Origin: a virus
Taxonomy: Duplodnaviria; Heunggongvirae; Uroviricota; Caudoviricetes
IMG/VR virus record: IMGVR_UViG_3300031998_000043
Length of the DNA: 19,845 nucleotides
Reading direction: 5' to 3' (one strand)
In this document: piece after piece, positions 206-18,774 of the stretch
Layout of the letters: every line of letters starts with the position of its first letter
Numbering within the stretch: the stretch's first letter is position 1
Translations under genes and position numbers: made by a program
Notes under the pieces: model-generated
Told to the model about the DNA's origin: nothing
Databases searched by the model: none
Seen by the model: only the letters and a program-made list of their open reading frames with translations

Positions 206-3200
206 TTAGAATTGTACTCTGTCTAGATCCTTTCCGACATAATATTGTTCGTGAATGATTCCTACCGAGCCATATTTATCATTTACTATGCGCTTATAGT
301 TAGTCGAATTTTGTGAGTAATTACTTACTTCCTTCCTTCTTGCATATAACCATGTACTTTCCAATGGGCTAAGATATTCAAAGTCTCTACAACCTGCAGT
401 TGGTATCAAAGCTGAAAGGGCTATAGTATCTCTATCTCCTTGACCTGCCCAGATGTTAATTTGAATCTTCATCGGTGTTTGTAATTCTAGATAGGTTCGT
501 AGTTGCTCTTGAAGAGAAGAGTCACTTACCCATGCACCGTCTTTACCAGTTGCAGCATACTGCTCAAAAATGGCTAGATTCGATATATTCACACTAAAAC
601 CGCCATTTATTCTTGCCATATAAGTATTCTTATAACGATTATCAACGAAACCAGTTACATTTTTTATTCTGCTTGGGTCATCAAAAACTGGAACAGACAT
701 AAATGTTCGACTGGAATTATTCGTACTTACAACTTGTACACCATTTATATGAATAGTCATATATGCTAAAACACCAACAAGAGAACCGAAATCTGGATTT
801 TGTGCTGCACAATCTGTTTGCCATCCTATTCTTCCATTTGCGGATTCTCGAGAAGATGTAGGCATATTAATGTTTAAAGTCAGAACAAGTGGCAAAATAC
901 CTATACACGGTTTCATCTCGCCATTCTGTAGGAACATTGGCCAGTATTTTGTTCCTACAGAACCACTACTGGCGGATAGCTCTCCAGATCCGTTGATGTA
1001 GATATGTTTAGTACTACTACCAAGACTGCCAGTGCGTGCTTTGAATTCGCCATTCTGCATGTAGATAAATTTTGAATTACTACCTGCAGAACCAGAAACA
1101 CCAGAAGATCCCTGAATAATCTGTTTCCATGTAGCAGACATAAGACTGCTATTTGGTGTAGTAACACTAAAGTCATTTTCACCAAAGTTAAGCATGGTAA
1201 TGTTATCATTGTATACGGTTACTTTTTCAGAATTTATGCATATACAACCTACAGTGCCGCCGCCATTTCTGGTAAGAAGATAGATGTCATCATTAGCGAC
1301 ATATATTTCAGAAGTAGAACCAGAGCCTACAAATTGCATACCAAAACGGTTTGCTTTCATACCGGCATAAGCCTCTATATGAGGATGTGTAGCATCCTCA
1401 GAAGATTTATGATGCCACATGAATGTCATGTACTCACTATCTTTGGCTTTACTACCCGGAGCTATTGTAAAGGTATTAGTGGGAATACCGCCTGTACTTC
1501 CGTAGCTTACTTTACTATCAATAGAGATAAGAGGCGTATAGTAATTATTGGTATTATAAGATTCTATTGTATTGAGATTAATTTCATTGTAGCGTCCGGT
1601 ACCAGTTTGTCTGAAAAGGCCGAGTCGAGAATTGTCTATGAATCCTGTAGCACTAAGAGTACCACTAGTTAAACTAGTCCTAAACTGGCTAGCATTAATA
1701 AATGTCTGAGAACCCTGGTTGGAATCTATGATCGTAGAATAAGCATTAATAGTCGTTGTAGAAACAGATCCGAAGTAAGTTCTATTAAGAGTAATAGAAG
1801 ACTCAGAGTGAGGGTTCGGAGAACCAACAGTAGCATATGTATACAAATCTATTGTGCCAAAAAGGGTATCCGAAGCTTTAGACTTAAGATGCATTACAGC
1901 AGTCCGATCATTATCTGTGACCTTAGAGATGATTGAATATTCTTGATTAGAATTAGGTCTATTAGCAGATATGTCAATCCCTGCTTCTCTATAGGCTGTA
2001 GTACCAACATGGGTAGTCCTTATAGTAACATTACCAAATCCGGAATTTGTTGTAATGGTAGCAAAATTATCACTGACAGATGAAAGTATCTTATGATCAT
2101 TTCTAATATCTTGAACACTAAGATCTGCAGAAGAAGAACTTGCAATAGACTGGATATAAAATCCATCGTATCTAATCTGTTCAAGTGAATACTTATTGCT
2201 ACTAGAACTAACATCATTTATATACGAAACTACATACCTGCTATCATCATCAGTACTAATAATAGAACGTGCTTCTCTATTATCTTTAGCGTACATAGCA
2301 GCACGTGTAAAGTTTCCATTGTCTTCACTTACCAAGTCAAATGAAGACGTATCTCCATTTTTCACTTTTATTATGCCAACATTATCGCCAGAAATAATAG
2401 AAAATTCAGACTGTATAGCAGACTCTATAGTTCCAGAAACACCACTATTTTCAGTAGTCTTTAATTCAATATATCCATTAGGGCCATTAGAAATCTTGGA
2501 GTATGCCTGTGTTGCACTCACAGAAGACTTAATGGATCCACTAGTGGAAGTACTACCATTTCTAATCTCAGTATCAACAGATGTTCCATTGATGTTAGTT
2601 AATGCAGAAGTTTGGCCAAAAACCATTGTCTCCTTAACACCGTTGTTAAGGCTAGTTTCAAGATTGATATATTTGCCATCTCCATTAGACAATTTTGTAG
2701 AAGACGAACTATCACTCACAGAAGATTCAATAGTGCCGCCATTATTACTACTATTACTTTTTGCAAGTTCAGTTGTTGCTATTGCTCCATTAAGCGTAGT
2801 AATAGAAGAGGTTTCTTCAAATCTCATTATCTCGCTGGTAGCATTAGTAGTCACACCGGCAGTATAAGATTTAGTAGGCGCGTTGTCTATCTTTAGGGTT
2901 TCAAATGCAGAATTAGTTCCTTTAGCTTCGATAGAAGAAGCTCCAGATTCGGACTTTAATTCAATACTATTATTATCTGTTTTCTTAATATTGATCTTAG
3001 CTTCAGAAGAGTTAACTTCTTCTAGAATCTGTCTATCATAATTCTTTTTATAGTCATGCGTCGGAGTGATTTCTGTGAAGAGAGCAGAGTCATTCCCAGT
3101 AACTTCAATCTTAGAAGAGGAGAAGTTTCCAGATGTTGCATCAGCAGAATCCTCAATGAATGGAAGATTATAGAAGTAAATAGTACCGGAATTAGTGCTA

Positions 3201-4465
3201 GCAAAGTATCCCATTCCAAGATAATAAATCTTGGAACTATCAGGAACATGTGCTGGAATGATACTGTCTCTTCTCAGCTTAGAAACTTCAGTTACATTGC
3301 TTATATCATGCACAGTAACCAGAGTAAGTGTGGAACCTACTATAATAGAGAAAGATACATTCTCGAAAAGCTCATCGCTGAATTTCCTTGTAGCTTGATA
3401 ATCAGTATCATCAATAACAACAAAGGGATTTCCACTTTCATCATCCGCACCAATAGCCTTTCTATTCACACAGATACCGCCATCTTCATAAATGGTTGCA
3501 ATCGTCTTTCTGTTTATATAAGAATTACATCCAATAGCAAAGAATTCTGCAGCATCAGAACTAGAAATACTAAAATCGTAAATACTGTATCCATCATTTC
3601 CAGTAGAGATCTTTCTAACAGAAATACTACCGCCATTTTGTCTATAAGCATAGTAAGCAGTCTTCTTACTGATAGATGGACTGTTATTAACGTTATAACA
3701 ATATCTCTGTACAGCTTTAGAAATAGCATTCTGGAAAGTAAATCCACTAAATCCGCTAGCAATACTAGAGGTTACATCTCTGTCAAAAGACTTTCCAAGA
3801 TTAAGAAGCTTAAGATCATTTCCAGAAATAACCAAGAATACACCTTCTTCAGAGATCTGAAGAAGACTATCTGCACTAGGAAGCGTTACATTCGTATTCT
3901 CGATAAAATCAGGCCTGTCCGAAGACTGTTCAGCATCCAGATTTATTGTAAACAGCTTCAAGGACTTATCATTATATCTGACAAGGAATCCAACGCCTTC
4001 AGCCGTTCTACACATAAAGACACGGTTAGCAGTCGTTGTAGTGGAGAATCCGATTCTCCAACCAATCTCGCCTTCCTTAGTAAACACGTTACTAAAATTA
4101 GTATAGACAACATCACCATTATTTTTAAGGGCAGCAACATATTGTCTATCAAGAGACGTTACATCTACAGCGCCAGTAATACCTGCTTCCTTAAGCTCTC
4201 TCAAAGACGTTCTAGACTTAAGAAGATCACCGACTTCACTTTCAATCGTATAATCTTCACCTGAACCAATCTTTACATAACGATGCGTACCATTCTTGAT
4301 AATGTGTGTATACACATTACCAACTTTATCAATAAAGATTTCACCAACTCTAGGAAGGTCAGGATCGGCAATTCTAGGAACAGGTGCATGAACAGGAGCG
4401 TCATATGGAGTTCCAACATCCTGAGTCCATGTCCATCTCAAAGGCTTAATAATAAAGCGACTCAT
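206..4465 (-). CDS. Large virion protein, probable tail fibre / receptor-binding protein (1419 aa)
   Basis: Long ORF rich in S/T/N/G with a beta-strand-like pattern. Internal repeats (GTIESSVSDSSSSTKLSNGDGKYINLET vs GSIKSSVSATQAYSKISNGPNGYIELKT) and three C-terminal GSxGS..K.IY..NGE-type repeats. Start moved from 4531 to ATG 4465 because RBS AAGGAG precedes it and a terminator hairpin covers 4511-4538. Confidence 0.6.
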   Translation of the reverse strand: MSRFIIKPLRWTWTQDVGTPYDAPVHAPVPRIADPDLPRVGEIFIDKVGNVYTHIIKNGTHRYVKIGSGEDYTIESEVGDLLKSRTSLRELKEAGITGAVDVTSLDRQYVAALKNNGDVVYTNFSNVFTKEGEIGWRIGFSTTTTANRVFMCRTAEGVGFLVRYNDKSLKLFTINLDAEQSSDRPDFIENTNVTLPSADSLLQISEEGVFLVISGNDLKLLNLGKSFDRDVTSSIASGFSGFTFQNAISKAVQRYCYNVNNSPSISKKTAYYAYRQNGGSISVRKISTGNDGYSIYDFSISSSDAAEFFAIGCNSYINRKTIATIYEDGGICVNRKAIGADDESGNPFVVIDDTDYQATRKFSDELFENVSFSIIVGSTLTLVTVHDISNVTEVSKLRRDSIIPAHVPDSSKIYYLGMGYFASTNSGTIYFYNLPFIEDSADATSGNFSSSKIEVTGNDSALFTEITPTHDYKKNYDRQILEEVNSSEAKINIKKTDNNSIELKSESGASSIEAKGTNSAFETLKIDNAPTKSYTAGVTTNATSEIMRFEETSSITTLNGAIATTELAKSNSSNNGGTIESSVSDSSSSTKLSNGDGKYINLETSLNNGVKETMVFGQTSALTNINGTSVDTEIRNGSTSTSGSIKSSVSATQAYSKISNGPNGYIELKTTENSGVSGTIESAIQSEFSIISGDNVGIIKVKNGDTSSFDLVSEDNGNFTRAAMYAKDNREARSIISTDDDSRYVVSYINDVSSSSNKYSLEQIRYDGFYIQSIASSSSADLSVQDIRNDHKILSSVSDNFATITTNSGFGNVTIRTTHVGTTAYREAGIDISANRPNSNQEYSIISKVTDNDRTAVMHLKSKASDTLFGTIDLYTYATVGSPNPHSESSITLNRTYFGSVSTTTINAYSTIIDSNQGSQTFINASQFRTSLTSGTLSATGFIDNSRLGLFRQTGTGRYNEINLNTIESYNTNNYYTPLISIDSKVSYGSTGGIPTNTFTIAPGSKAKDSEYMTFMWHHKSSEDATHPHIEAYAGMKANRFGMQFVGSGSTSEIYVANDDIYLLTRNGGGTVGCICINSEKVTVYNDNITMLNFGENDFSVTTPNSSLMSATWKQIIQGSSGVSGSAGSNSKFIYMQNGEFKARTGSLGSSTKHIYINGSGELSASSGSVGTKYWPMFLQNGEMKPCIGILPLVLTLNINMPTSSRESANGRIGWQTDCAAQNPDFGSLVGVLAYMTIHINGVQVVSTNNSSRTFMSVPVFDDPSRIKNVTGFVDNRYKNTYMARINGGFSVNISNLAIFEQYAATGKDGAWVSDSSLQEQLRTYLELQTPMKIQINIWAGQGDRDTIALSALIPTAGCRDFEYLSPLESTWLYARRKEVSNYSQNSTNYKRIVNDKYGSVGIIHEQYYVGKDLDRVQF

Positions 4466-4505
4466 AAAGTCTCCTTGTCTGTTTATCAATGATAAAGTTT
4501 TTGAT

Positions 4506-4538
4506 AAAAATTCTAGTATGGTATAGACCATACTAGAA
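4506..4538 (-). terminator. Intrinsic terminator after the 212-aa gene
   Basis: Perfect 12-bp stem TTCTAGTATGGT-atag-ACCATACTAGAA flanked by A-runs, giving a T-tract on the minus strand. Confidence 0.8.
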
Positions 4539-5276: not shown

Positions 5277-6140
5277 ATGAACGCAGGTTTGTGTTTATCT
5301 GTTTCTGGTGGTGGAATTTTGGGTGTTGGCCCTGCTCACTATCTTGCTCGTCTTGAAGGAGACCTTGGGTGTCCGCTTGGTAATAGACTTATTGCTCAGG
5401 CTGGAACGTCTACTGGCTCTATCCTTGCGGCTGGTATGGCTGAAGGAATTAAGGCTATCGATATGGAAGAACTATATCGTAAGAAAGGTTCTACTATCTT
5501 TACAAAGTATCCTTGGTATAAGAGAGCCTTGCCCACTTGCCCTACTTATGATAATACCAACCTTAAGAAAATCCTTAAGGAAAAATTCAAGGGTAAAGTC
5601 AATGAGTGGAAAGAGCCTACATTCATTACATCTACATACATGAATGGAAAATCCGTAGAGAAGATTTGGGATGAAAAAGATGTTGTAGAAAAGTGGTTTG
5701 CAATTCTTACATCTTGCGCAGCTCCAACTTACTTTGATGTTATTGTTGACTCTATGTCTAGAAGCTTCTGTGATGGTGGTATGTGGGCCAACTCTTGTCC
5801 TCAGATCCTGATGGCAGGTATGTATCGTAGAGGTAATAGGAATATTCGCATTCTTAACCTTGAGACTGGTATGGATACTCCCAATACTGAAAGTGGAAAT
5901 AAGACTTTAGCTGGTTGGGCTACCTATATCTTTAAGAAATGGGTTGCCAGAGCTTCTAAGGCTAATGCTTATATTTGCTCTTCCGTACTGGGCGATGAGA
6001 ATTTCTTTAATGTTATGCCGGAATCTCATAAGACACATGAGATGGATGACATGAAGGAAATTGATATTGTCACTGATATTTGGGATAAGCAATACGATAA
6101 GGATCGTGAAAAACTTCTGAAATTCGTTAATCCGAGGTAG
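5277..6140 (+). CDS. Patatin-like phospholipase (287 aa)
   Basis: Gly-rich SGGGILG loop, nucleophile elbow GTSTG and DGG motif (FCDGGMWAN). RBS GGAGG. Confidence 0.92.
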   Translation: MNAGLCLSVSGGGILGVGPAHYLARLEGDLGCPLGNRLIAQAGTSTGSILAAGMAEGIKAIDMEELYRKKGSTIFTKYPWYKRALPTCPTYDNTNLKKILKEKFKGKVNEWKEPTFITSTYMNGKSVEKIWDEKDVVEKWFAILTSCAAPTYFDVIVDSMSRSFCDGGMWANSCPQILMAGMYRRGNRNIRILNLETGMDTPNTESGNKTLAGWATYIFKKWVARASKANAYICSSVLGDENFFNVMPESHKTHEMDDMKEIDIVTDIWDKQYDKDREKLLKFVNPR

Positions 6141-6612: not shown

Positions 6613-8583
6613 ATGAACAAAGAATCTATGTCGAAGTATGATGAGCTAATGGCTGCCGCCGAAAGCATCAAGAAAGAATTGCTTGATTGTGATAAGCAGG
6701 TTGACCAGTTTGCTCAACTGATTGCTCCGTGGTATTGCGCCCCGGAAATCATTACTAAGCCTCTGGTCATTAACCTTGTTGGTATGACTGGAATTGGTAA
6801 GACTCAGATGTTCCGTCTGTTCTGTGATAGACTTAAGCTGAACAGCCTTGCCGAAACACTCACTTGCGCTAACAATACCTCTATCAATCCTTCTACTGTT
6901 GCCTTCCGCATGAAAGAAGAACAAGGTCTTGAAAAAGGTATCATCTTCATTGATGAATTCCAGAATTTCTCCTGTAAGGGAATGATGGGTGTTAGAACGA
7001 ATAATCCTAGCACTCAAGAATTCTGGAACCTGCTCTCCGATGGTAAAGTCAAGATCAATATGTCCAAGGAAGAACTTGAACGATTGATGTACAGAGCTCA
7101 GGGCGAAATGCAGACAGAAGAAGAAGAACTGTCTAACGGAAAGAAGAGACAGTCATTCCCGACGTTCTTTGGAAGTACTGCGTACCGTCTTTACATTCTT
7201 TGTAAGAAGAAAGTTCCTCTTGAGAAAATCAAGGTCATGCACGGTAAGGAAGCTTTCAAGTTTGTTAGTGAGCTTTACGAACACTATGATAATAAGCCGA
7301 TTTACGCAGACTTTTCTAAGTTCCTGTTCGTGACTGCCTGTAACCTTGACTGTGTTTTTGCAGATGCCACTGATGTAGCTTCTTGTGAGATCGATGCTGA
7401 TGAAGTGTATGAATCTACCAAGGATGTAAATATCTTTGATGTTAAGGAAGGATTATCCTACTTTTTCTTTCCTGAACAGGTTGCAAGACTTGGTAACAAC
7501 TTTATCATCTTCCATTCTCTTTCCAAAGACAGCTTCGAAAAGATCATTGATGGTTGTCTTAATGAAATCTCTGAAAATACTAAGGCAGCCATTGGTACTG
7601 AAATTACTTTCGACAAATCTGTCAAGGACATGGTCTACCGCAATGGCGTTTTCCCGACACAGGGTGCTAGACCTTTGATGTCTACTATTAATGGTACTAT
7701 TGCTTCAGCTATTCCTCTGATTGTATTCAAACAGAAGGAAGCTGACAAGAAGATTACCGTTAAGTATAATGATGAAAAAATGGAACTAGAAGCTAATGGC
7801 GTAAGCGTAAGCTGCATTGGCCCTTATGACGAAAGTGCTAGACGCATTAAGACTAAGGTTAATGAACGCCGTTGTACTTCGGTTCATGAATCTGGTCATG
7901 CTATAGTCTATGCCGAATCCTTTGGAGCTATTCCTAAGAAGATGGTCAGCATTGTAGCAGACTCTAGAGTTGCTGCCGGATTCATTTCTACTCACATAAT
8001 TCGTCATACTGCCATTACAATGAAGGCTTTCATTTGTGTAGCCCTTGCTGGAATGGTTGCTGAAGAGATTGTATTCGGTAAGGACTTCCGCACGGTTGGA
8101 TGCTCTTCTGACTTGGCCAAGGCTACTGCAATGGCTGCCGCCTATGTTAGAAAGTTTGCATTCACCGATAAGATAAAGGCTGTGGTCGGAACCAAGGAAA
8201 ATGAGTACAATAAGCTCTCTGAAACTTCCGAAGTGATCAACGATATCATCAAGGATTGTATCAAGACTACTAAGGAAATTATCACTAAGAATATTGAAAT
8301 TCTTAAGGAAATCTCTGAAGTAATGTTTGAAAAGACTAGATGTACTCCGGAAGAGTTCAAGGCTATTGCCGATAAGCATGGAAAGAAGTATGTCATTGTC
8401 AGTCCTTCCAAGAAGATTACTCCTAACTTTGAAGAACGCTATAAGATGTTCGATGAGTCCAAGGTTAAGTCTATCGAAGAAGTATCTAATGCTGAAGAAT
8501 GTGTATCCTTCTTTGAAGGTGCTTACAGAGAATCCGATTCCGGTATGACTCCGGCAGTTGACGATCTTTTCTTGGACTTCTAA
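6613..8583 (+). CDS. AAA+ ATPase (ClpA/B D2-like) fused to an M41 (FtsH-type) zinc metallopeptidase domain, no transmembrane segment (656 aa)
   Basis: Walker A GMTGIGKT and Walker B IIFIDE. ClpB-D2-like FFFPEQVARLG..IIFHSL and GARPL. M41 motifs HESGH, AGMVAEEIVFG and GCSSDL. RBS AAGGA. Confidence 0.85.
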   Translation: MNKESMSKYDELMAAAESIKKELLDCDKQVDQFAQLIAPWYCAPEIITKPLVINLVGMTGIGKTQMFRLFCDRLKLNSLAETLTCANNTSINPSTVAFRMKEEQGLEKGIIFIDEFQNFSCKGMMGVRTNNPSTQEFWNLLSDGKVKINMSKEELERLMYRAQGEMQTEEEELSNGKKRQSFPTFFGSTAYRLYILCKKKVPLEKIKVMHGKEAFKFVSELYEHYDNKPIYADFSKFLFVTACNLDCVFADATDVASCEIDADEVYESTKDVNIFDVKEGLSYFFFPEQVARLGNNFIIFHSLSKDSFEKIIDGCLNEISENTKAAIGTEITFDKSVKDMVYRNGVFPTQGARPLMSTINGTIASAIPLIVFKQKEADKKITVKYNDEKMELEANGVSVSCIGPYDESARRIKTKVNERRCTSVHESGHAIVYAESFGAIPKKMVSIVADSRVAAGFISTHIIRHTAITMKAFICVALAGMVAEEIVFGKDFRTVGCSSDLAKATAMAAAYVRKFAFTDKIKAVVGTKENEYNKLSETSEVINDIIKDCIKTTKEIITKNIEILKEISEVMFEKTRCTPEEFKAIADKHGKKYVIVSPSKKITPNFEERYKMFDESKVKSIEEVSNAEECVSFFEGAYRESDSGMTPAVDDLFLDF

Positions 8584-9526: not shown

Positions 9527-9566
9527 TTATATGTAATCTAAAAAGATATAAAACGACTATATATAA
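9527..9566. promoter_or_regulatory. Divergent TATATAA-type promoter elements
   Basis: TATATAA at 9560-9566 (+) upstream of the 9614 gene, and CATATAA at 9527-9533 (-) upstream of the 9496 gene. Confidence 0.5.
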
Positions 9567-11453: not shown

Positions 11454-11495
11454 CATTGGTGGAACTTATGATTGAAGTTTTCAAAAGGGCTATTT

Positions 11496-14060
11496 ATGAA
11501 TGATACAAACTTAGAAACATCGCTAAAGAAGGCGAATGATAAGATTGAACGAAACTTGTACGGGTTCAATCTGTCCGACTTCTCTGCGAACCTAGATTCT
11601 ATTAATGAACTTGCCCAAAAGTCTCTTAAGACGATCAACAGTCTTAAGGTTACTGGAGACCAGCCCGATCTCATTGAGTTCATTGATAGAGAATTCTACA
11701 ACAGCAAGGCTGGACGTATAGGTAAGGGTTGGGGCATTAATGTTCCCAACAATGGATCTGTTAGAGCTAAGAATTACGAAAATACTCTATTATCCGATCT
11801 TGAATCTGGTAAGATTGATCTTGCCGGAGAAGATGCTAATTCTGTATCTAGACAAGCTAGATATAGATCGATTGATAGCGTGTGTTCCTTGATTCCTCAG
11901 TTGATGAGAATCCTGCATATCTATCGTGACTCTATCATGTCTCCGAATGCTTTTTCTGAACTTTCAGAAACTGATGGTCTCACCTTTGACGTTAAGCAGA
12001 CTGGTGAACATGAAGCAACCAACTTCCAAGTTCTTGATACCTTGTTAAATCTAAATAAGGAATATAAGGTTTCTGACGAAGTTGCTCCTAAGGCTTGTTC
12101 TGACCTTTTGAAATATGGTGACGGTTACGTTTGTGTTCTTGATTATGAGAAAGAAGTAAACAGACTTCTGCACATGGCAGATGATACTCCTCATGGACTG
12201 GCTCATGAAGCCTTCCTTGATAGAAGTAGTGAGGGAATGCTTGCTGCCAATGAAGCAAAGTCCTTGAACAACATTGTTAAGTCTTTGATTGATGAAGAGT
12301 ATGATGCATTTAAGTCTTTGAACCCTTCTTCTAAAGAAAAGAAACCTGAGTTTAAGGATCTATCTGCTCTCGAATGGTCTAATGAGATTGATAAGTTCCT
12401 TAATGTAGAATATACTACAAGTCTAATGAGTCTCTTCCCTGAAGAGAAGATGCTTCTTGATGACCTCATTGATTCGGGTTCTCTCAAGAGTGGCAAGGAT
12501 ATTATGCTTGCTGCCAGAGAAGCATTTAATTCTGAAGAAAACACCGGTCTTGTAATTGATGGATCTATTGTAAAGGTTCTGGATCCTAAGAAGGTCGTGA
12601 TTGTTGAGATCGCAGGTAAGGAACTTGGATATTATTTCCTGTCTGCTGAATTTGATGATGCTCGAATTGATGCTCTTGACTACAATCCTCAAGGATGTCC
12701 GGCATGTGATCTGACTTATACTAGTGATCGTATGTATTCCTTTATCACCCATATGGGTAATAGCCCGGTGAATAAGGAAACTAGAGCTAGCATTATTGCT
12801 GATCTTTGTCTTAAGAGACTTTCCAAGAAGATTGACAGAAAGTTTATCGCAAAGAACAAAGAGTTCAAGGACTTCATTTTTTCTATCCTTAGAGCAAAAA
12901 AGAGACTGAATAAGGTTACAGTGACCTTTATTCCGGCATCCAATCTTGTTCACTTCAAGAGAGGAAACGGAACCTACGGTGAATCTGTTCTTGACAGTGT
13001 TCTTTACTTTGCCAAACTCTACGTACTTTCTATGCTCTCCGCCCTGATGCAGCAAATCATCATGGGTAAGGATAAACAGATCTTCTACGTTGACACTGGT
13101 CTTGATGAAGATTCTGAAGGAGCGATCCAGAAGTTCATTATGGACTTCAGATCTAAGGAAGTGACCGTAGATGACTTCTCAGATGTCACTAATATTATGA
13201 ACCGTGTTACGAAGAGTAACTCTATGTTCATTCCTATGGTGGACGGAAAGAAGGCTGTAGAATTTGACAATTATGCTGGACAGCAAGCTGAATTTAATAA
13301 TGACTTCTTGCAAGACTTGCTTAAGTCTATTATTAGCGGTACAGGCATTCCTACTGCATGGCTTGATAGTGGTATGAGCGATATTGAATTCGCCACGCAG
13401 CTTGTACAGCAGAATGGTAACGTTCTTAGAACTGTGACAATGTACCAGAGAGTCATGAACAATGGTATTACCAGATTGTTCCAGCTTCTCTATAAACATC
13501 AGAAGATTGGTAAGGATACAGAGAATCAAGATAATATTCCTGAATTCTTCATTCATTATCCTGAACCTGTGACCCTTGATAGCAAGGTTGCTGAAGAGTC
13601 TATTTCTAAAGCTCAGTCTATTGCTGATTTCATTATCAATACCCTTATTGGTGAGAATCCGAATGATCGTGATAATCTTGCCAAGGAAGTTCTTAAGAGA
13701 GAACTTACTAAGAAATACTCTGCCGGTATTGACTGGGAAGAAGCAGAAGAACTGCTTAAGAAAGCCAGAGAAGAGACTCAGGAAACTGCTCTCCGTGATG
13801 AAGCCATTGACAAGAAGGCTGAAGAGACTCACGATGAAGAAGCAGAAAAGCATCCTGAAGAGGCCAAGAAACAGGAAGAAGAAAAGCAGGAAGAGGAAGG
13901 TGGAAACCAAGCCAATCCTGAAAACCCTGAAGAGGAAGAAGAAACTTCAGAAGAAAATGAAAAGTCTTCTGCTGCAGAGAAACCTAAGAAGGGAGAAGAA
14001 AATGAGGAAGAGGAAGAATCTGAAGGTGGTTCACCTGAAGAGGATTTCTTTAACTCCTAA
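11496..14060 (+). CDS. Portal protein, T4 gp20-like, in an enlarged jumbo-phage form (854 aa) with an acidic C-terminal tail
   Basis: KDKQIFYVDTGLDED...FIPMVDGKKAVEFDNYAGQ...LQDLLKSIISGTGIPTAWL parallels the T4 gp20 core as I recall it (RRVWYVDTG...WLQRRDGKAVTEVDTLPG...LYMALRVP). The N-terminal IPQLMRILHIYRDSIMSP segment is typical of large-phage portals. Start moved from TTG 11472 to ATG 11496. Confidence 0.85.
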   Translation: MNDTNLETSLKKANDKIERNLYGFNLSDFSANLDSINELAQKSLKTINSLKVTGDQPDLIEFIDREFYNSKAGRIGKGWGINVPNNGSVRAKNYENTLLSDLESGKIDLAGEDANSVSRQARYRSIDSVCSLIPQLMRILHIYRDSIMSPNAFSELSETDGLTFDVKQTGEHEATNFQVLDTLLNLNKEYKVSDEVAPKACSDLLKYGDGYVCVLDYEKEVNRLLHMADDTPHGLAHEAFLDRSSEGMLAANEAKSLNNIVKSLIDEEYDAFKSLNPSSKEKKPEFKDLSALEWSNEIDKFLNVEYTTSLMSLFPEEKMLLDDLIDSGSLKSGKDIMLAAREAFNSEENTGLVIDGSIVKVLDPKKVVIVEIAGKELGYYFLSAEFDDARIDALDYNPQGCPACDLTYTSDRMYSFITHMGNSPVNKETRASIIADLCLKRLSKKIDRKFIAKNKEFKDFIFSILRAKKRLNKVTVTFIPASNLVHFKRGNGTYGESVLDSVLYFAKLYVLSMLSALMQQIIMGKDKQIFYVDTGLDEDSEGAIQKFIMDFRSKEVTVDDFSDVTNIMNRVTKSNSMFIPMVDGKKAVEFDNYAGQQAEFNNDFLQDLLKSIISGTGIPTAWLDSGMSDIEFATQLVQQNGNVLRTVTMYQRVMNNGITRLFQLLYKHQKIGKDTENQDNIPEFFIHYPEPVTLDSKVAEESISKAQSIADFIINTLIGENPNDRDNLAKEVLKRELTKKYSAGIDWEEAEELLKKAREETQETALRDEAIDKKAEETHDEEAEKHPEEAKKQEEEKQEEEGGNQANPENPEEEEETSEENEKSSAAEKPKKGEENEEEEESEGGSPEEDFFNS

Positions 14061-14067
14061 AACCAAG

Positions 14068-14097
14068 TGTGGAAAGCTTCGGCTTTCCACATTTTTT
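14068..14097 (+). terminator. Intrinsic terminator of the portal gene
   Basis: TGTGGAAAGC-TTCG-GCTTTCCACA followed by TTTTTT. Confidence 0.92.
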
Positions 14098-14100
14098 AAG

Positions 14101-14133
14101 AAAAAAAGACGGGAACACTCCTGTACCCGTCTT
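14101..14133 (-). terminator. Intrinsic terminator closing ncRNA 1
   Basis: AAGACGGG...CCCGTCTT stem with 7 A on the plus side, giving a U-tract on the minus strand. It sits back-to-back with the portal terminator, and no credible minus-strand gene ends here. Confidence 0.8.
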
Positions 14134-14640
14134 ATAACCCCGTTACCGGAGTTTTGCTAATCCCTATGGGTAGGATCCCTATTGTCTGGAGCTATTCTAC
14201 GATGTGGGTATCGCACATTAGTAGTGAACAGGGCAAGTTAATGCCTTGTTATGCCCGTGCTTTGTCGTACCGGCATCCGAGGACATTTGAGTGTCCAGTC
14301 TCCAGATCCACGGAGAGGATCCATTTTTTGCGGTGGCGTGTCTCATCCACTGGCCCCACGTCGCGGGATTCTTCTAGACAGTACCATTTCAGCTTGCGCA
14401 TCGGCTTACTTAGATACAAACCAGCCTCTTCGCCTCGTCCATAGTTTGCAAGACCACGGCGGCTCTTCTGGTTCCGTTGAGTGCTCACCACTGAGGATAG
14501 CTTCTCCTCAAAGGCTTCTCGCTCCATTTTACGGCTTTGTCCCAACGGCGACTCAGCACAACCCCTACGCTACGAGTATGTATACGTAGAGGACACCTCC
14601 TAAGATATTTGATCTTAACATCGAGGAGATTAGGTCAAAA
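14101..14640 (-). ncRNA. Putative large structured ncRNA 1 (~540 nt), family unassigned
   Basis: Locally GC-enriched (a sampled 60-nt line is 53% GC in an AT-rich genome). Bounded by TATATAA and a terminator. The 5' end TTTTG-ac-CTAATCTC (14640-14626) pairs with GGGATTAG-CAAAA (14164-14152). Many hairpins (TGAGGA/TCCTCA, GGACA/TGTCC, ATGTG/CACAT, AACTCCG-GTAA-CGGGGTT with a GNRA loop). Shares motifs with ncRNA 2. Confidence 0.75.
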
Positions 14641-14642
14641 AG

Positions 14643-14649
14643 TTATATA
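14643..14649 (-). promoter_or_regulatory. TATATAA promoter element for ncRNA 1
   Basis: GATTGTATATAACT on the minus strand, immediately before the 5' strand of the closing helix. Confidence 0.55.
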
Positions 14650-14701
14650 CAATCATCATATCACTTTTTACATAAACTCAATAATGAACTTGAGAGGAAA
14701 T

Positions 14702-15160
14702 ATGAAGAAAGTGGATGAAATTGTAGCACTAGAGGATCGTTGCAACGAGCTATTTTCTATGCTCCCGGCAGATGAAGTTGCTAGCGCTAATGGTGTTATT
14801 GATAGACTTCTTTATATGGACTATGGAAAGATGGTTAAGCATTTTAAGAGCCGTATAGAAGTTACCGATGATAAGAAGGCTCTGCAGAATCTTAAAGACG
14901 ATATCCAAGATGTGCTTACTAATATGCAGGATATAGTCAAGGGTAAGACTAATAAGGCTACTGCAATTAGAAGTATCATTACAGCATTAGTAAGTGCAGG
15001 TCTATTTGCTATTCCGTTTGTTGGTATTGCTTCTATGACTGCCTTTATTGTAAAACGCACTAAAGATATGGATGAAATTAGAAAGAAGCTGAGTGCCCAG
15101 ATTCCGGGAATGCAGCAAATTCTAACAACTGTTAAACAAAAAATCGAGAGGATCAAATGA
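14702..15160 (+). CDS. Hypothetical helical protein with one long hydrophobic segment (152 aa)
   Basis: Start moved from 14537 to ATG 14702 (RBS GAGAGG). Hydrophobic stretch IITALVSAGLFAIPFVGIASMTAFIV lies between coiled-coil-like helices. Confidence 0.75.
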   Translation: MKKVDEIVALEDRCNELFSMLPADEVASANGVIDRLLYMDYGKMVKHFKSRIEVTDDKKALQNLKDDIQDVLTNMQDIVKGKTNKATAIRSIITALVSAGLFAIPFVGIASMTAFIVKRTKDMDEIRKKLSAQIPGMQQILTTVKQKIERIK

Positions 15161-15738: not shown

Positions 15739-15942
15739 AAAACTTTCTATTGTGGAGAATTTCACACATGAATCTTCTAATATTAAAGCCGTTATTACGC
15801 TAATACGAAAATTCAGTTTGAATTATTCAGACGAGTTTAGGTATTAGCATATACTTTCTCGTTTGATTCCACAATCGTTCTAACTTTACTTTGGAAACAG
15901 GCTCCACAAGCCGCATAGTAAAAATTGAAATGGAGACAAATG

Positions 15943-18216
15943 ATGATCACAGAGATCGAAAAAAGAGATGGTAGAGTTGTACCGTTTACTGAACAGAAGG
16001 TGTTCAATGCGGTATATAAGTCATTCGCAGAAGTTGCAGCTAAGAATGGCACTACGGTAGATGAGAACAACGTCAAGATCGTTGTTGACGAAGTCGTGAA
16101 GGATATCCAAGATCTTCAAGCAGACCGTCTTCAAATTGACGAAATGCAGTCTATTGTAATTTGTGCTATTAAGGACAAGGGCTTCACGGAAGAATTCGAA
16201 GCATATCGTAACTTCCGTAACCGCCGTAACAGAGCAAGAAATCGTAAGATGCCTCTGTACTCCAAGTTGGCTGATATTACTTTCAGCGACCTCGAAGACT
16301 CTAACATCAAGCGTGAAAATGGTAACATTGATGGAAATTCCGCAATGGGTAAAATGCTTCGGTATGGTTCTGAAGCTGCCAAGGAATTCTTCCTTGATCG
16401 TGTTATTAGCGAAAAGTATTCCAATGCTCATAGAGAAGGGTTTATCCATATTCATGATATGGACTTCTATGGCATTACGACGACATGTACCCAGATTGAC
16501 CTTGTTCAGATGCTCGAAACAGGCTTCAACACTGGTCATGGGTTTGTCCGTCCTCCTAATTCTATTCGTACCGCTGCTGCTCAGACTGCTATTCTTATTC
16601 AGTCTAACCAGAATGACCAGCATGGCGGTCAGTCTATCCCTAACTTTGACTTGGGATTGGCTAAGTATGTAAAGCTTTCTTTCAACAAGATCCTTCGTCA
16701 TGAATTCGAAGATGCCTTGTTTTTGGCTGATGTCAAGGAAGAAGATGTTAAGGCTATGGAGAAGGACTTGTTTGCTGACAAGTATAAATATTCCATGCAG
16801 GATTGCGAAGCTTTCTGTAATGATATTGCCAGTTGTGGTATTGAAAAGTCTGAAGGCGAAAAGCTGTTTAAGCTCTCATTGAAGCGTATCTATGGAAAGA
16901 CTTATCAGGCTATGGAAGCATTGTTGTTCAACCTGAATACGATGCATAGTAGAGCAGGTGCTCAGGTTCCGTTCTCTTCTATTAACTACGGTACGGAAAC
17001 TTCTGAAGAAGCTCGTCTGGTTATCAGGTGTATGCTTGAAGTGACTGACAAGGGTCTTGGTCATGGTGAAACACCGATCTTCCCCATTCAGATTTTCCGT
17101 GTAATGGAAGGTGTGAACTACAATCCGGGCGATCCTAACTATGACTTGTTCAAGCTTGCCATGAAGGTATCTGCTCACAGGTTCTTCCCGAACTGGGAAT
17201 TCCAAGATTCTCCGTTCAATATGCAATACTATGTGCCGGGTAAGCCTGAAACACTTGTTTCCACGATGGGTTGCCGTACCAGAGTTGTTGCAGATGTTAA
17301 TGCTGAAGTTCCGCAGGTGTGGCGTAGAGGTAATCTCTCTTTCACCACTATTAACCTCCCTCGTCTTGCTATCGTTAACAGAGGCAACTGGGCTGGATTC
17401 TATGCGGATCTTGACAAGTATCTGAATCTCTGTAAAGATCAGTTGCTTGAACGCTATGCTCTTCAGTGTAAGCAGAAAGTAAAGAACTTCAAGTTCCTGA
17501 TGGGTCAGCATGTATGGCTTGATTCTGAGAAGCTTGGAATGAATGACACTCTTGAGTCTGTCCTGAAACATGGATCTTTGTCTATTGGTTTCATCGGTCT
17601 GGCTGAAGCTCTGATTCTCATGACTGGTCATCATCATGGCGAGTCTGAAGAAGCTCAGAAAGAAGGTCTTGCCATTGTTAAGCACATGAGAGACTTCTGT
17701 GATAAGTGGACTGAAGAACTGAAGCTGAACTTTACCCTCTTAGCTACTCCGGCTGAAGGATTGTCTGGACGCTTTACTAGGATTGATAAGGCTAAGTTTG
17801 GCGATATTCCGGGAATTACTGATAAGGACTTCTATACAAATTCCTGTCATATTCCTGTAGACTATAAGTGCTCTGCTTTCCATAAGATTCAGGTAGAAGC
17901 TCCGTATCACGCTCTTTGCAATGCAGGTCATATACTCTATGTAAAGATGGATGGTGATGCTACTCAAAATCTCGAAGCCTATGAGAAGATTGTCCGTTGT
18001 ATGCATGATAATCATGTAGGCTACGGAGCAGTCAATATTGATGTAGACTATTGTACTAAGTGCCATAAGAGTGGTATCTTCAATGAAGATAAATGTCCGT
18101 TCTGTGGAAGTACTGAGATTGATCGTATCAGACGTATTACTGGTTATCTTGTTGGCTCTTTGGCTAATTGGAATAATGGTAAGAAGGCTGAATACAAGAT
18201 CAGAGGAAACGTGTAA
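15943..18216 (+). CDS. nrdD: Anaerobic (class III) ribonucleoside-triphosphate reductase, large subunit, with an N-terminal ATP cone
   Basis: ATP-cone start IEKRDGRVVPF, then FIHIHDMDFY, TMGCRT, ATPAEG, Zn-site CTKC...CPFC and glycyl-radical loop RRITGYL. RBS GGAGA favours ATG 15943 (alternative 15940). Confidence 0.97.
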   Translation: MITEIEKRDGRVVPFTEQKVFNAVYKSFAEVAAKNGTTVDENNVKIVVDEVVKDIQDLQADRLQIDEMQSIVICAIKDKGFTEEFEAYRNFRNRRNRARNRKMPLYSKLADITFSDLEDSNIKRENGNIDGNSAMGKMLRYGSEAAKEFFLDRVISEKYSNAHREGFIHIHDMDFYGITTTCTQIDLVQMLETGFNTGHGFVRPPNSIRTAAAQTAILIQSNQNDQHGGQSIPNFDLGLAKYVKLSFNKILRHEFEDALFLADVKEEDVKAMEKDLFADKYKYSMQDCEAFCNDIASCGIEKSEGEKLFKLSLKRIYGKTYQAMEALLFNLNTMHSRAGAQVPFSSINYGTETSEEARLVIRCMLEVTDKGLGHGETPIFPIQIFRVMEGVNYNPGDPNYDLFKLAMKVSAHRFFPNWEFQDSPFNMQYYVPGKPETLVSTMGCRTRVVADVNAEVPQVWRRGNLSFTTINLPRLAIVNRGNWAGFYADLDKYLNLCKDQLLERYALQCKQKVKNFKFLMGQHVWLDSEKLGMNDTLESVLKHGSLSIGFIGLAEALILMTGHHHGESEEAQKEGLAIVKHMRDFCDKWTEELKLNFTLLATPAEGLSGRFTRIDKAKFGDIPGITDKDFYTNSCHIPVDYKCSAFHKIQVEAPYHALCNAGHILYVKMDGDATQNLEAYEKIVRCMHDNHVGYGAVNIDVDYCTKCHKSGIFNEDKCPFCGSTEIDRIRRITGYLVGSLANWNNGKKAEYKIRGNV

Positions 18217-18257
18217 AAAAAGAACAACGACCGGGTGATGAGTCCGGTCGTTGTTCT
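18215..18257. terminator. Terminator hairpin shared by nrdD (+) and ncRNA 2 (-)
   Basis: 14-bp perfect stem AGAACAACGACCGG (18221-18234) / CCGGTCGTTGTTCT (18244-18257). The better U-tract (A6 on plus) is on the minus strand. Confidence 0.85.
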
Positions 18258-18774
18258 GTTTCTCCTCAGCAACCAATGGTGGCTGTTTAGGAGTTAGAAG
18301 CATTGTGCACTTGCTTCTAGCCTTCTACAGAGACCTATAGCTTTCCTGCCCAAGACAAGACTTACAGGTATTGCGATGGTCTTAACCCTTCCTCCAGTTC
18401 ATATAGCAGGGCGCCCCCTGTGGCACTATGAAGAACCAGATTCCAAGCTATCCTACAATGGCCATTGTAGTGACATGGAGAGTATTTAGTTAATCCTAAC
18501 TACGGATATTTAACTCTTCTCCGTCAGATGCTGTCGGCATCCTTATCCATCCCCTTCCGGCATTGGAAGATGGACTACAGCGATTCGCCACTTCGGGAGA
18601 GCTACTCCTTTAGGCTGTCGTGGAACGCTGCCAATTTCACCGTACTCTTTCAGACGAACACCTGATCCCCAAGAATGCGAACCTGGGTCAGATGCATAGT
18701 ACGGCTATCAATCTACTACATCAGTCTTTCGTGATTAGATCGATTGAGCATAGTCTTTCAACATACGCTATAAG
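18215..18774 (-). ncRNA. Putative large structured ncRNA 2 (~555 nt), paralogue of ncRNA 1, family unassigned
   Basis: No credible ORF and partly GC-enriched. Bounded by TATATAAT and a terminator. 5' CTTATAGC (18774-18767) pairs with GCTATAGG (18341-18334). Nested helices include CCGTACT/AGTACGG, GCATCTGA/TCAGGTGT, CCATC/GATGG, GGATGC/GCATCT, TAGAAGCA/TGCTTCTA and CTCCT..CAGC/GCTG-AGGAG. Shares motifs with ncRNA 1. Confidence 0.75.

Follow-up and report, generated by a model that had tools for sequence, protein, structure and literature searches.

A predicted structured non-coding RNA gene in an accessory promoter-to-terminator cassette next to the portal gene of an uncultivated phage

The region downstream of the portal gene in the 19,845-nt stretch of phage DNA analyzed here (the window) probably contains a real gene for a structured non-coding RNA of ~535 nt, designated RNA1, which is located on the minus strand at 14099-14636 within an accessory cassette that comprises a promoter, the RNA, and a terminator. 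We assign this reading a probability of about 0.7, which refers to the gene-level claim and not to mechanism; that the region holds no RNA gene at all is improbable. Judged by sequence and model searches, RNA1 looks like a new large phage RNA unmatched by known families.

The window is part of a 48.8-kb virus-record fragment that is ~19% complete, and the contigs of its relatives are 135, 235, and 242 kb in length. The gene that the initial annotation labeled as portal is indeed homologous to the portal vertex proteins of the Bacillus phages AR9, PBS1, and Internexus (~30% identity to the annotated portals over 75% of the length by tblastn), and its product also matches phrog_3004. Based on this homology, we consider the source to be an uncultivated jumbo phage distantly related to AR9 and PBS1. 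Approximately 640 bases without a credible gene separate the portal stop codon from the ATG at 14702, and the neighboring genes decode normally with table 11; the AR9 genome has no gap after the portal gene. The 152-aa gene that starts at this ATG is kept in all relatives. The features of the region are the following.

11472..14060, plus strand: gene for the 862-aa portal vertex protein, convergent with the RNA1 gene
14068..14097, plus strand: portal gene terminator, a 10-bp hairpin (14068-14091) and a T-run, from a terminator scan
14099..14133, minus strand: RNA1 intrinsic terminator, a hairpin (14106-14133) and a U-run (14099-14105), from the minimum free energy (MFE) fold
14099..14636, minus strand: predicted RNA1 transcript, ~535 nt, from the putative start G14636 to the terminator U-run
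14249..14545, minus strand: 98-codon open reading frame (ORF) inside RNA1, judged not to be a gene
14643..14654, minus strand: promoter-like motif (an extended TATATAA) with G(+1) at 14636 after N6, assigned from the intergenic N6-G association, the AR9-early layout, and conservation in the sister contig L003
14702..15160, plus strand: gene for a 152-aa protein of unassigned function, from the ORF list, divergent from the RNA1 gene

A counterpart of RNA1 (~525 nt) was found at the same site in the contigs L002 and L003, whose portal protein is 90-91% identical to that of the window. This sister copy keeps the extended TATATAA motif, a core of ~100 nt, and the same hairpins. BLAST aligns only ~90 nt between RNA1 and its L002/L003 counterpart, at 75% identity, and the full-length alignment of the two copies has a local score of 63 compared to 20±2.3 for shuffled sequences (592 compared to 360±26 under lax scoring). 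The contigs L004 and L008 (portal 76% identical) and L009 (68%) are without the cassette and have a ~130-nt spacer between the portal gene and the next gene. Comparison with these spacers delimits the unit that is present or absent to ~14098 to ~14672, so that promoter, RNA, and terminator come and go together. The model of the RNA1 core, R1, found no match in the 94%-complete genome G002, the source of L004. Since the cassette is missing in three more distant relatives, it is accessory. It is also narrowly distributed, with two sequence lineages known: portal-guided searches of IMG/VR and the JGI metagenomes yielded only five related loci, blastn of RNA1 against 50,697 GenBank phages gave no match, and the extra matches from motif scans of IMG/VR and 185,579 prokaryote genomes were all attributable to chance, either by reading or by R1 score. 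Thus, no further member was found in IMG/VR, the JGI metagenomes, the GenBank phages, or these prokaryote genomes.

RNA1 was proposed in the initial annotation to be transcribed independently, and the arrangement of the cassette agrees with this proposal, as it carries a promoter-like motif and a terminator of its own, and the sister lineage retains the two despite the unrelated terminator sequence. The two back-to-back terminators described there are present, with that of RNA1 facing that of the portal gene on the opposite strand. The portal terminator is 92% conserved in L003, whereas the RNA1 terminator is represented at the matching place in L003 by an 11-bp hairpin plus U6 that is unrelated in sequence to the one in the window. 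At the other end, the TATATAA noted on the 5' side of RNA1 was located at 14649-14643 of the minus strand. This heptamer occurs 17 times in the 48.8-kb record (9 intergenic and 8 coding copies), and a G stands exactly after N6 in 6 of the 9 intergenic copies compared to none of the 8 coding ones. The intergenic copies that precede genes are positioned 17-48 nt upstream of the start codon in the correct orientation, and the N6-G pattern recurs at the five intergenic copies of L003 and L004. As a separate observation, an (A/T)-rich TATATAA-N6-G sequence is a candidate promoter of this phage more generally, with copies at 9560, 10937, 14649, 18782, 19386, and 19408 of the window and elsewhere in the 48.8-kb record.

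The early promoters of AR9, which are used by its virion RNA polymerase, have the form AAATATATATTAT-N6-G(+1) (PMC5312081). The early transcription units of AR9 and the RNA1 cassette thus share an AT-rich motif, N6, and then G(+1) (PMC5312081), but differ in the motif itself, which is AAATATATATTAT in AR9 and is centered on TATATAA in RNA1. From this AR9-early-like layout we infer that RNA1 transcription starts at G14636, and the same layout suggests that RNA1 is an early transcript read from a promoter of the virion RNA polymerase type. The word 'noncoding' is absent from the AR9 transcriptome paper (PMC5312081). Probing for transcript-derived contigs with the ORF translations of the region returned either only two long, near-identical DNA contigs or no match.

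The RNA1 region differs from its surroundings in composition (GC content of 0.488 compared to ~0.39 in the rest of the window) and folds more stably than expected. The minus strand has a predicted folding energy of -187.5 kcal/mol compared to -163.7±6.0 kcal/mol for dinucleotide shuffles (RNAfold; z = -3.98, 0 of 100 shuffles), and the z-score of the plus strand is -2.52. The RNA1 body, taken from the putative start and with the terminator left out, also remains more stable than its shuffles (z = -3.11). For the whole L003 counterpart the z-score is -3.16, and its body without the terminator is only marginally more stable than shuffles (z = -1.76, 4 of 100). The stable fold envisaged in the initial annotation is thus corroborated by the comparison with shuffled sequences, as well as by hairpins that are kept through base changes in the sister copy. 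The predicted helices of RNA1 are listed below from the 5' end.

14595..14630, minus strand: hairpin H1 (a+b), loop 14610-14617 containing a conserved GAUC
14562..14592, minus strand: hairpin H2, 11 pairs, in both independent MFE structures
14474..14548, minus strand: conserved core, an 8-bp outer helix around an invariant internal loop (14525-14535) and H3
14541-14548 / 14474-14481, minus strand: core outer helix, curated
within 14474..14548, minus strand: two short inner helices of the core, curated
14491..14511, minus strand: hairpin H3, loop 14498-14504 conserved and containing AGCU, in both MFE structures
14419..14473, minus strand: helix P5 (arms 14468-14473 / 14419-14424), enclosing a variable insert
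14330..14359, minus strand: hairpin H7, 3' of a conserved block, curated and not from the blind test
14281-14296, minus strand: helix H8, from the curated set
14228..14249, minus strand: hairpin H9, loop 14236-14241 conserved and containing UUAA, in both independent MFE structures
14136..14153, minus strand: hairpin H10 (14137-14152 in the curated set), capped by a GNRA tetraloop, directly upstream of the terminator

The independently folded copies from the window and L003 have 34 MFE pairs in common, compared to 7.5±6.5 in controls in which the non-anchor segments of L003 were shuffled (maximum of 31; none of 150 controls reached 34). In addition, alifold on plain MAFFT alignments gave z-scores of -2.1 and -2.4 against column shuffles. 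A blind count of the stacks that both copies can form did not exceed that of a parallel-strand control and also had no power against a fake-pairing control; for this reason, the MFE-overlap test was relied on instead. The overlap and the alifold scores argue that structure is conserved beyond sequence, a statement that refers to two lineages in which the blind stack count did not exceed its control. The latter fact also makes hand-picking a real risk with two sequences. The 12 curated helices comprise 73 pairs: 43 are identical in the two copies, 2 differ on one side, 28 differ on both sides, and no pair is broken; this tally was hand-picked from two sequence lineages and is not a significance test. 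With two lineages, standard covariation statistics are not applicable to the RNA1 helices.

Transcribed from the putative start, the 5' domain would fold into H1 followed by H2 in both MFE structures. H1 is predicted independently in the two copies, with two double and one single compensatory changes and no broken pair, and H2 has four double changes, one single change, and likewise no broken pair. The core that follows is the sole BLAST-detectable stretch between the lineages (75% identity), and the R1 scores of the two copies are 119 and 123.5 bits, with no match elsewhere. Within the core, H3 retains its loop sequence, whereas 4 of its 7 stem pairs differ on both sides, with no pair broken. 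Four of the six P5 pairs are also changed on both sides; this helix is part of the MFE structure of L003 and is formable but non-MFE in the window. Toward the 3' end, three of the seven H7 pairs differ on both sides without any being broken, and the stem of H9 has four double changes. The H10 loop, GUAA in RNA1, is GCGA in the L003 copy, and 3 of the 6 H10 stem pairs are changed on both sides without a broken pair. The parts conserved in sequence are the core internal loop (14525-14535 and its neighbors) and three hairpin loops on covarying stems.

All the complementary segments listed in the initial annotation exist where it placed them, and the comparison with L003 separates those that are conserved from those that are not. 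CCGTTG/CAACGG corresponds to the core outer helix and CCAG/CTGG to P5, and both are kept in the sister copy via compensatory changes. TCTGGAG/CTCCAGA is part of the MFE structure of the window but has no L003 counterpart, and the alternative or pseudoknot pairings GTGCT/AGCAC and TGAGT/ACTCA are not conserved, in each case by sequence inspection. Similarly, we considered an intramolecular pseudoknot of the AGCU loop and rejected it, as the partner is not at the homologous position in L003. The 13-bp helix that was suggested to close the molecule by joining its 5' and 3' ends is real as a complementarity; it has no positional counterpart in L003, whose 5' end pairs with a different, non-homologous place, and it overlaps the covarying H1b. 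Moreover, 5 of the 13 pairs involve bases that precede the putative start G14636, so with this start most of its TTTTG arm would not be transcribed. The idea that such a helix protects the RNA ends is therefore disfavored, since the helix is not conserved and competes with H1b, which both copies are predicted to fold from the putative start.

The region could be a decaying or orphan protein-coding gene represented by the minus-strand ORF of 92-98 codons, in which case the apparent structure would be incidental, and this reading draws on the facts that the ORF is on the transcribed strand, that two gene callers called it, and that its first nine codons are alike in both lineages with several synonymous differences, the similarity going on in a shifted frame. 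However, the ORF begins within the conserved core, a 1-nt indel in L003 shifts its frame so that a stop follows after 14 codons, and the other indels between the copies (1, 4, 6, 7, 11, 19, and 35 nt) are not all multiples of three. The AUG has no visible Shine-Dalgarno sequence, whereas the neighboring genes have strong ones. A search of 5.8 billion clustered proteins and another of 1.84 billion representative ones returned only near-identical copies of the ORF, which has no Pfam or PHROG match, and the plus-strand ORFs of the region gave no protein matches. The GC content exceeds that of the phage's genes by 10 points, the stems vary through paired substitutions around constant loops, and the terminator function persists with a new sequence. 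We consider the coding explanation very unlikely; the shifted and truncated sister frame, the non-triplet indels, and the orphan status of the ORFs indicate that no open reading frame is conserved and that RNA1 is most simply read as non-coding. A recoded genetic code was also considered and rejected, as each frame of the region contains all three stop codons and the neighboring genes are read normally. The cassette could also be a cis-acting DNA element (a packaging or replication site or a recombination hotspot) or a mobile-element remnant, not an RNA gene, in line with its position next to the portal gene, its richness in short palindromes, and its presence/absence polymorphism. This explanation is remote, given that the fold stability is strand-asymmetric, that the conserved helices hold G-U pairs, which on the opposite strand would become A-C mismatches, and that the promoter and terminator point the same way in the two lineages. 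Furthermore, terminal inverted or direct repeats were not seen at the cassette borders, intron, ribozyme, and transposon-associated RNA searches gave no match, and the four phage genomes hold no other copy. We retain the structured non-coding RNA gene as the preferred reading.

RNA1 was compared with known RNA families as the initial annotation had suggested, and no family matched. A cmscan search of the whole window with Rfam 15 (4227 families, including ROOL, GOLLD, OLE, pRNA, and introns) found nothing at the gathering threshold, and searches at E up to 10 on 13900-14900, on 14095-14645, and on the L003 copy gave terminator-driven noise only, such as SdsR with 23 bits against a cut-off of 38. 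Group I and II introns, RNase P, tmRNA, 6S, pRNA, OLE, HEARO, and raiA thus had no Rfam 15 match above threshold, and the ROOL (RF03087) and GOLLD (RF01998) covariance models had none even at E up to 10. ROOL and GOLLD, recently shown to build RNA-only cages, are to our knowledge among the few big natural RNAs still without a known function. Like RNA1, they are phage-encoded, stand-alone, highly structured RNAs of ~500-800 nt with no assigned function, in which a conserved part lies beside poorly conserved regions. In contrast to them, RNA1 is not found beside tRNA genes (ARAGORN detected neither tRNA nor tmRNA in the 19.8-kb window) and is represented by two lineages only; its three conserved loops with palindromic tetramers hint at possible multimerization. 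OLE is a bacterial RNA of extremophilic Firmicutes that has dedicated protein partners and dimerizes via a palindromic kissing loop. It is similar in size to RNA1, and palindromic loop tetramers (GGCC, GAUC, or AGCU in OLE) are the proposed self-contacts in RNA1 as well, but RNA1 is from a phage and has neither partner genes nor an Rfam match. The pRNA of phi29-type phages (RF00044) is an essential RNA of ~120-174 nt. It resembles RNA1 in being a phage RNA, it self-associates by loop-loop contacts as RNA1 might, and the RNA1 gene adjoins the portal gene; it differs from RNA1 in that the latter is ~535 nt long, has no Rfam match, and is missing in close relatives with the same portal. A core packaging role for RNA1 is therefore unlikely.

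The conserved loops of H1, H3, and H9 each hold a self-complementary tetramer (GAUC, AGCU, and UUAA, respectively). The chance of a palindromic tetramer in all three conserved loop segments of 4-6 nt is roughly 0.001, although the argument was made post hoc. By hand count, the conserved sequence as a whole shows no enrichment of such tetramers, and the genome does not avoid them. The symmetric intermolecular kissing loops of OLE and GOLLD carry GGCC, GAUC, or AGCU (PMC12286853), and GOLLD shares with RNA1 the self-complementary loop tetramers, which in GOLLD form symmetric kissing loops (PMC12286853). By analogy with OLE and GOLLD, RNA1 might work as a folded particle whose copies would contact one another symmetrically, loop to loop, via the three conserved loops, and whose invariant internal core loop would hold a binding partner. 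Self-association via kissing loops at GAUC, AGCU, and UUAA is a speculative possibility, and a 4-bp UUAA contact would be weak. The broader proposal that RNA1 founds a new class of self-assembling phage RNAs, independent of ROOL and GOLLD, expressed from an early virion-polymerase promoter and forming a dimer or cage via three kissing loops, is doubtful on present odds. If it were true, RNA-only quaternary assemblies would be a recurrent phage invention. A jumbo-phage RNA of ~535 nt unrelated to ROOL and GOLLD would suggest that phages have evolved large structured RNAs repeatedly, RNA1 being a case carried as a swappable cassette with an apparent early promoter. With its core of ~100 nt and three mutable palindromic loops, RNA1 offers a small and concrete test object.

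A different use of the same molecule would be as a protein-binding decoy or sponge for host takeover or counter-defense, an early, accessory, and fast-evolving RNA that would offer its invariant unpaired internal loop and its hairpin loops to a host or phage protein, so as to titrate or activate it, and whose remaining parts would serve as a scaffold. The moron-like cassette, present or absent among close relatives, is consistent with such a role, as are the early-type layout of its promoter and the fact that the most conserved bases (14525-14535 and their neighbors) are predicted to be unpaired inside a covarying frame. Nevertheless, RNA1 has no likeness to any protein-binding RNA in Rfam, and no partner gene is co-inherited with it, the flanking genes being found also in the relatives that lack the cassette. 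We regard the decoy as possible, though we would not favor it. Some other RNA function takes the remainder of the odds beside self-association, the decoy, and the lack of an RNA gene. Two more specific roles were tried and rejected. An antisense regulator would require complementary targets, and no complementarity of at least 14 nt was found elsewhere in the four phage genomes, the promoter motif excepted. As for a CsrA-type sponge, the GGA counts of 15 and 10 are not striking, and the sites are not conserved.

Another cassette of similar kind is located in the same window.

18215-18774, minus strand: ncRNA 2, a promoter-to-terminator non-coding cassette with a TATATAA motif, similar in size to RNA1

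RNA1 could be a diverged paralogue of ncRNA 2, such that the two would form one RNA class. They have a common architecture (a TATATAA promoter, a length of 540-560 nt, their own terminator, and convergence on the upstream gene), and both contain an irregular stem with an AGCU-containing loop followed by a similar short purine-rich stretch. In contrast, local alignment detected no relationship, since the score was reached by 158 of 300 shuffles for one RNA1 lineage and by 275 of 300 for the other (z ~1 under lax scoring). R1 had no match in ncRNA 2 at E up to 10 with filters off, and the 8-mer they have in common is the chance expectation for two 550-nt sequences. Homology between RNA1 and ncRNA 2 was thus recovered neither by alignment nor by R1. 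The two cassettes also vary independently: in L003, RNA1 is present and protein genes occupy the ncRNA 2 site, and L004 is without RNA1, yet carries a 47-nt patch similar to ncRNA 2 (L004 13033-13079). Common descent of RNA1 and ncRNA 2 is accordingly unlikely.

Several minor features of the window and its relatives were recorded. The 130-nt spacer of the relatives without RNA1 contains a hairpin of ~65 nt before a 154-aa gene (L004 8600-8690; L008 5235-5310; L009 5815-5885), whose 10-bp stem differs between the contigs and stays complementary, and whose loop is C/A-rich; this hairpin may be a leader element that was replaced by the RNA1 cassette. A conserved leader was also observed upstream of the anaerobic ribonucleotide reductase gene nrdD (window 15790-15900; L008 6380-6500; L009 7110-7215), with a stem GCTAATAC / GTATTAGC around a variable insert, followed by a conserved AACTTTACTTTGGAAA-like box; it had no Rfam match. 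The 1441-aa ORF at 206-4531 on the minus strand of the window matched nothing in Pfam at E up to 0.001. The window also contains a patatin-like phospholipase at 5277-6140 (PF01734, E = 9e-13) and, at 6613-8583, an FtsH-like protein that combines Peptidase_M41 and ClpB D2-small domains.
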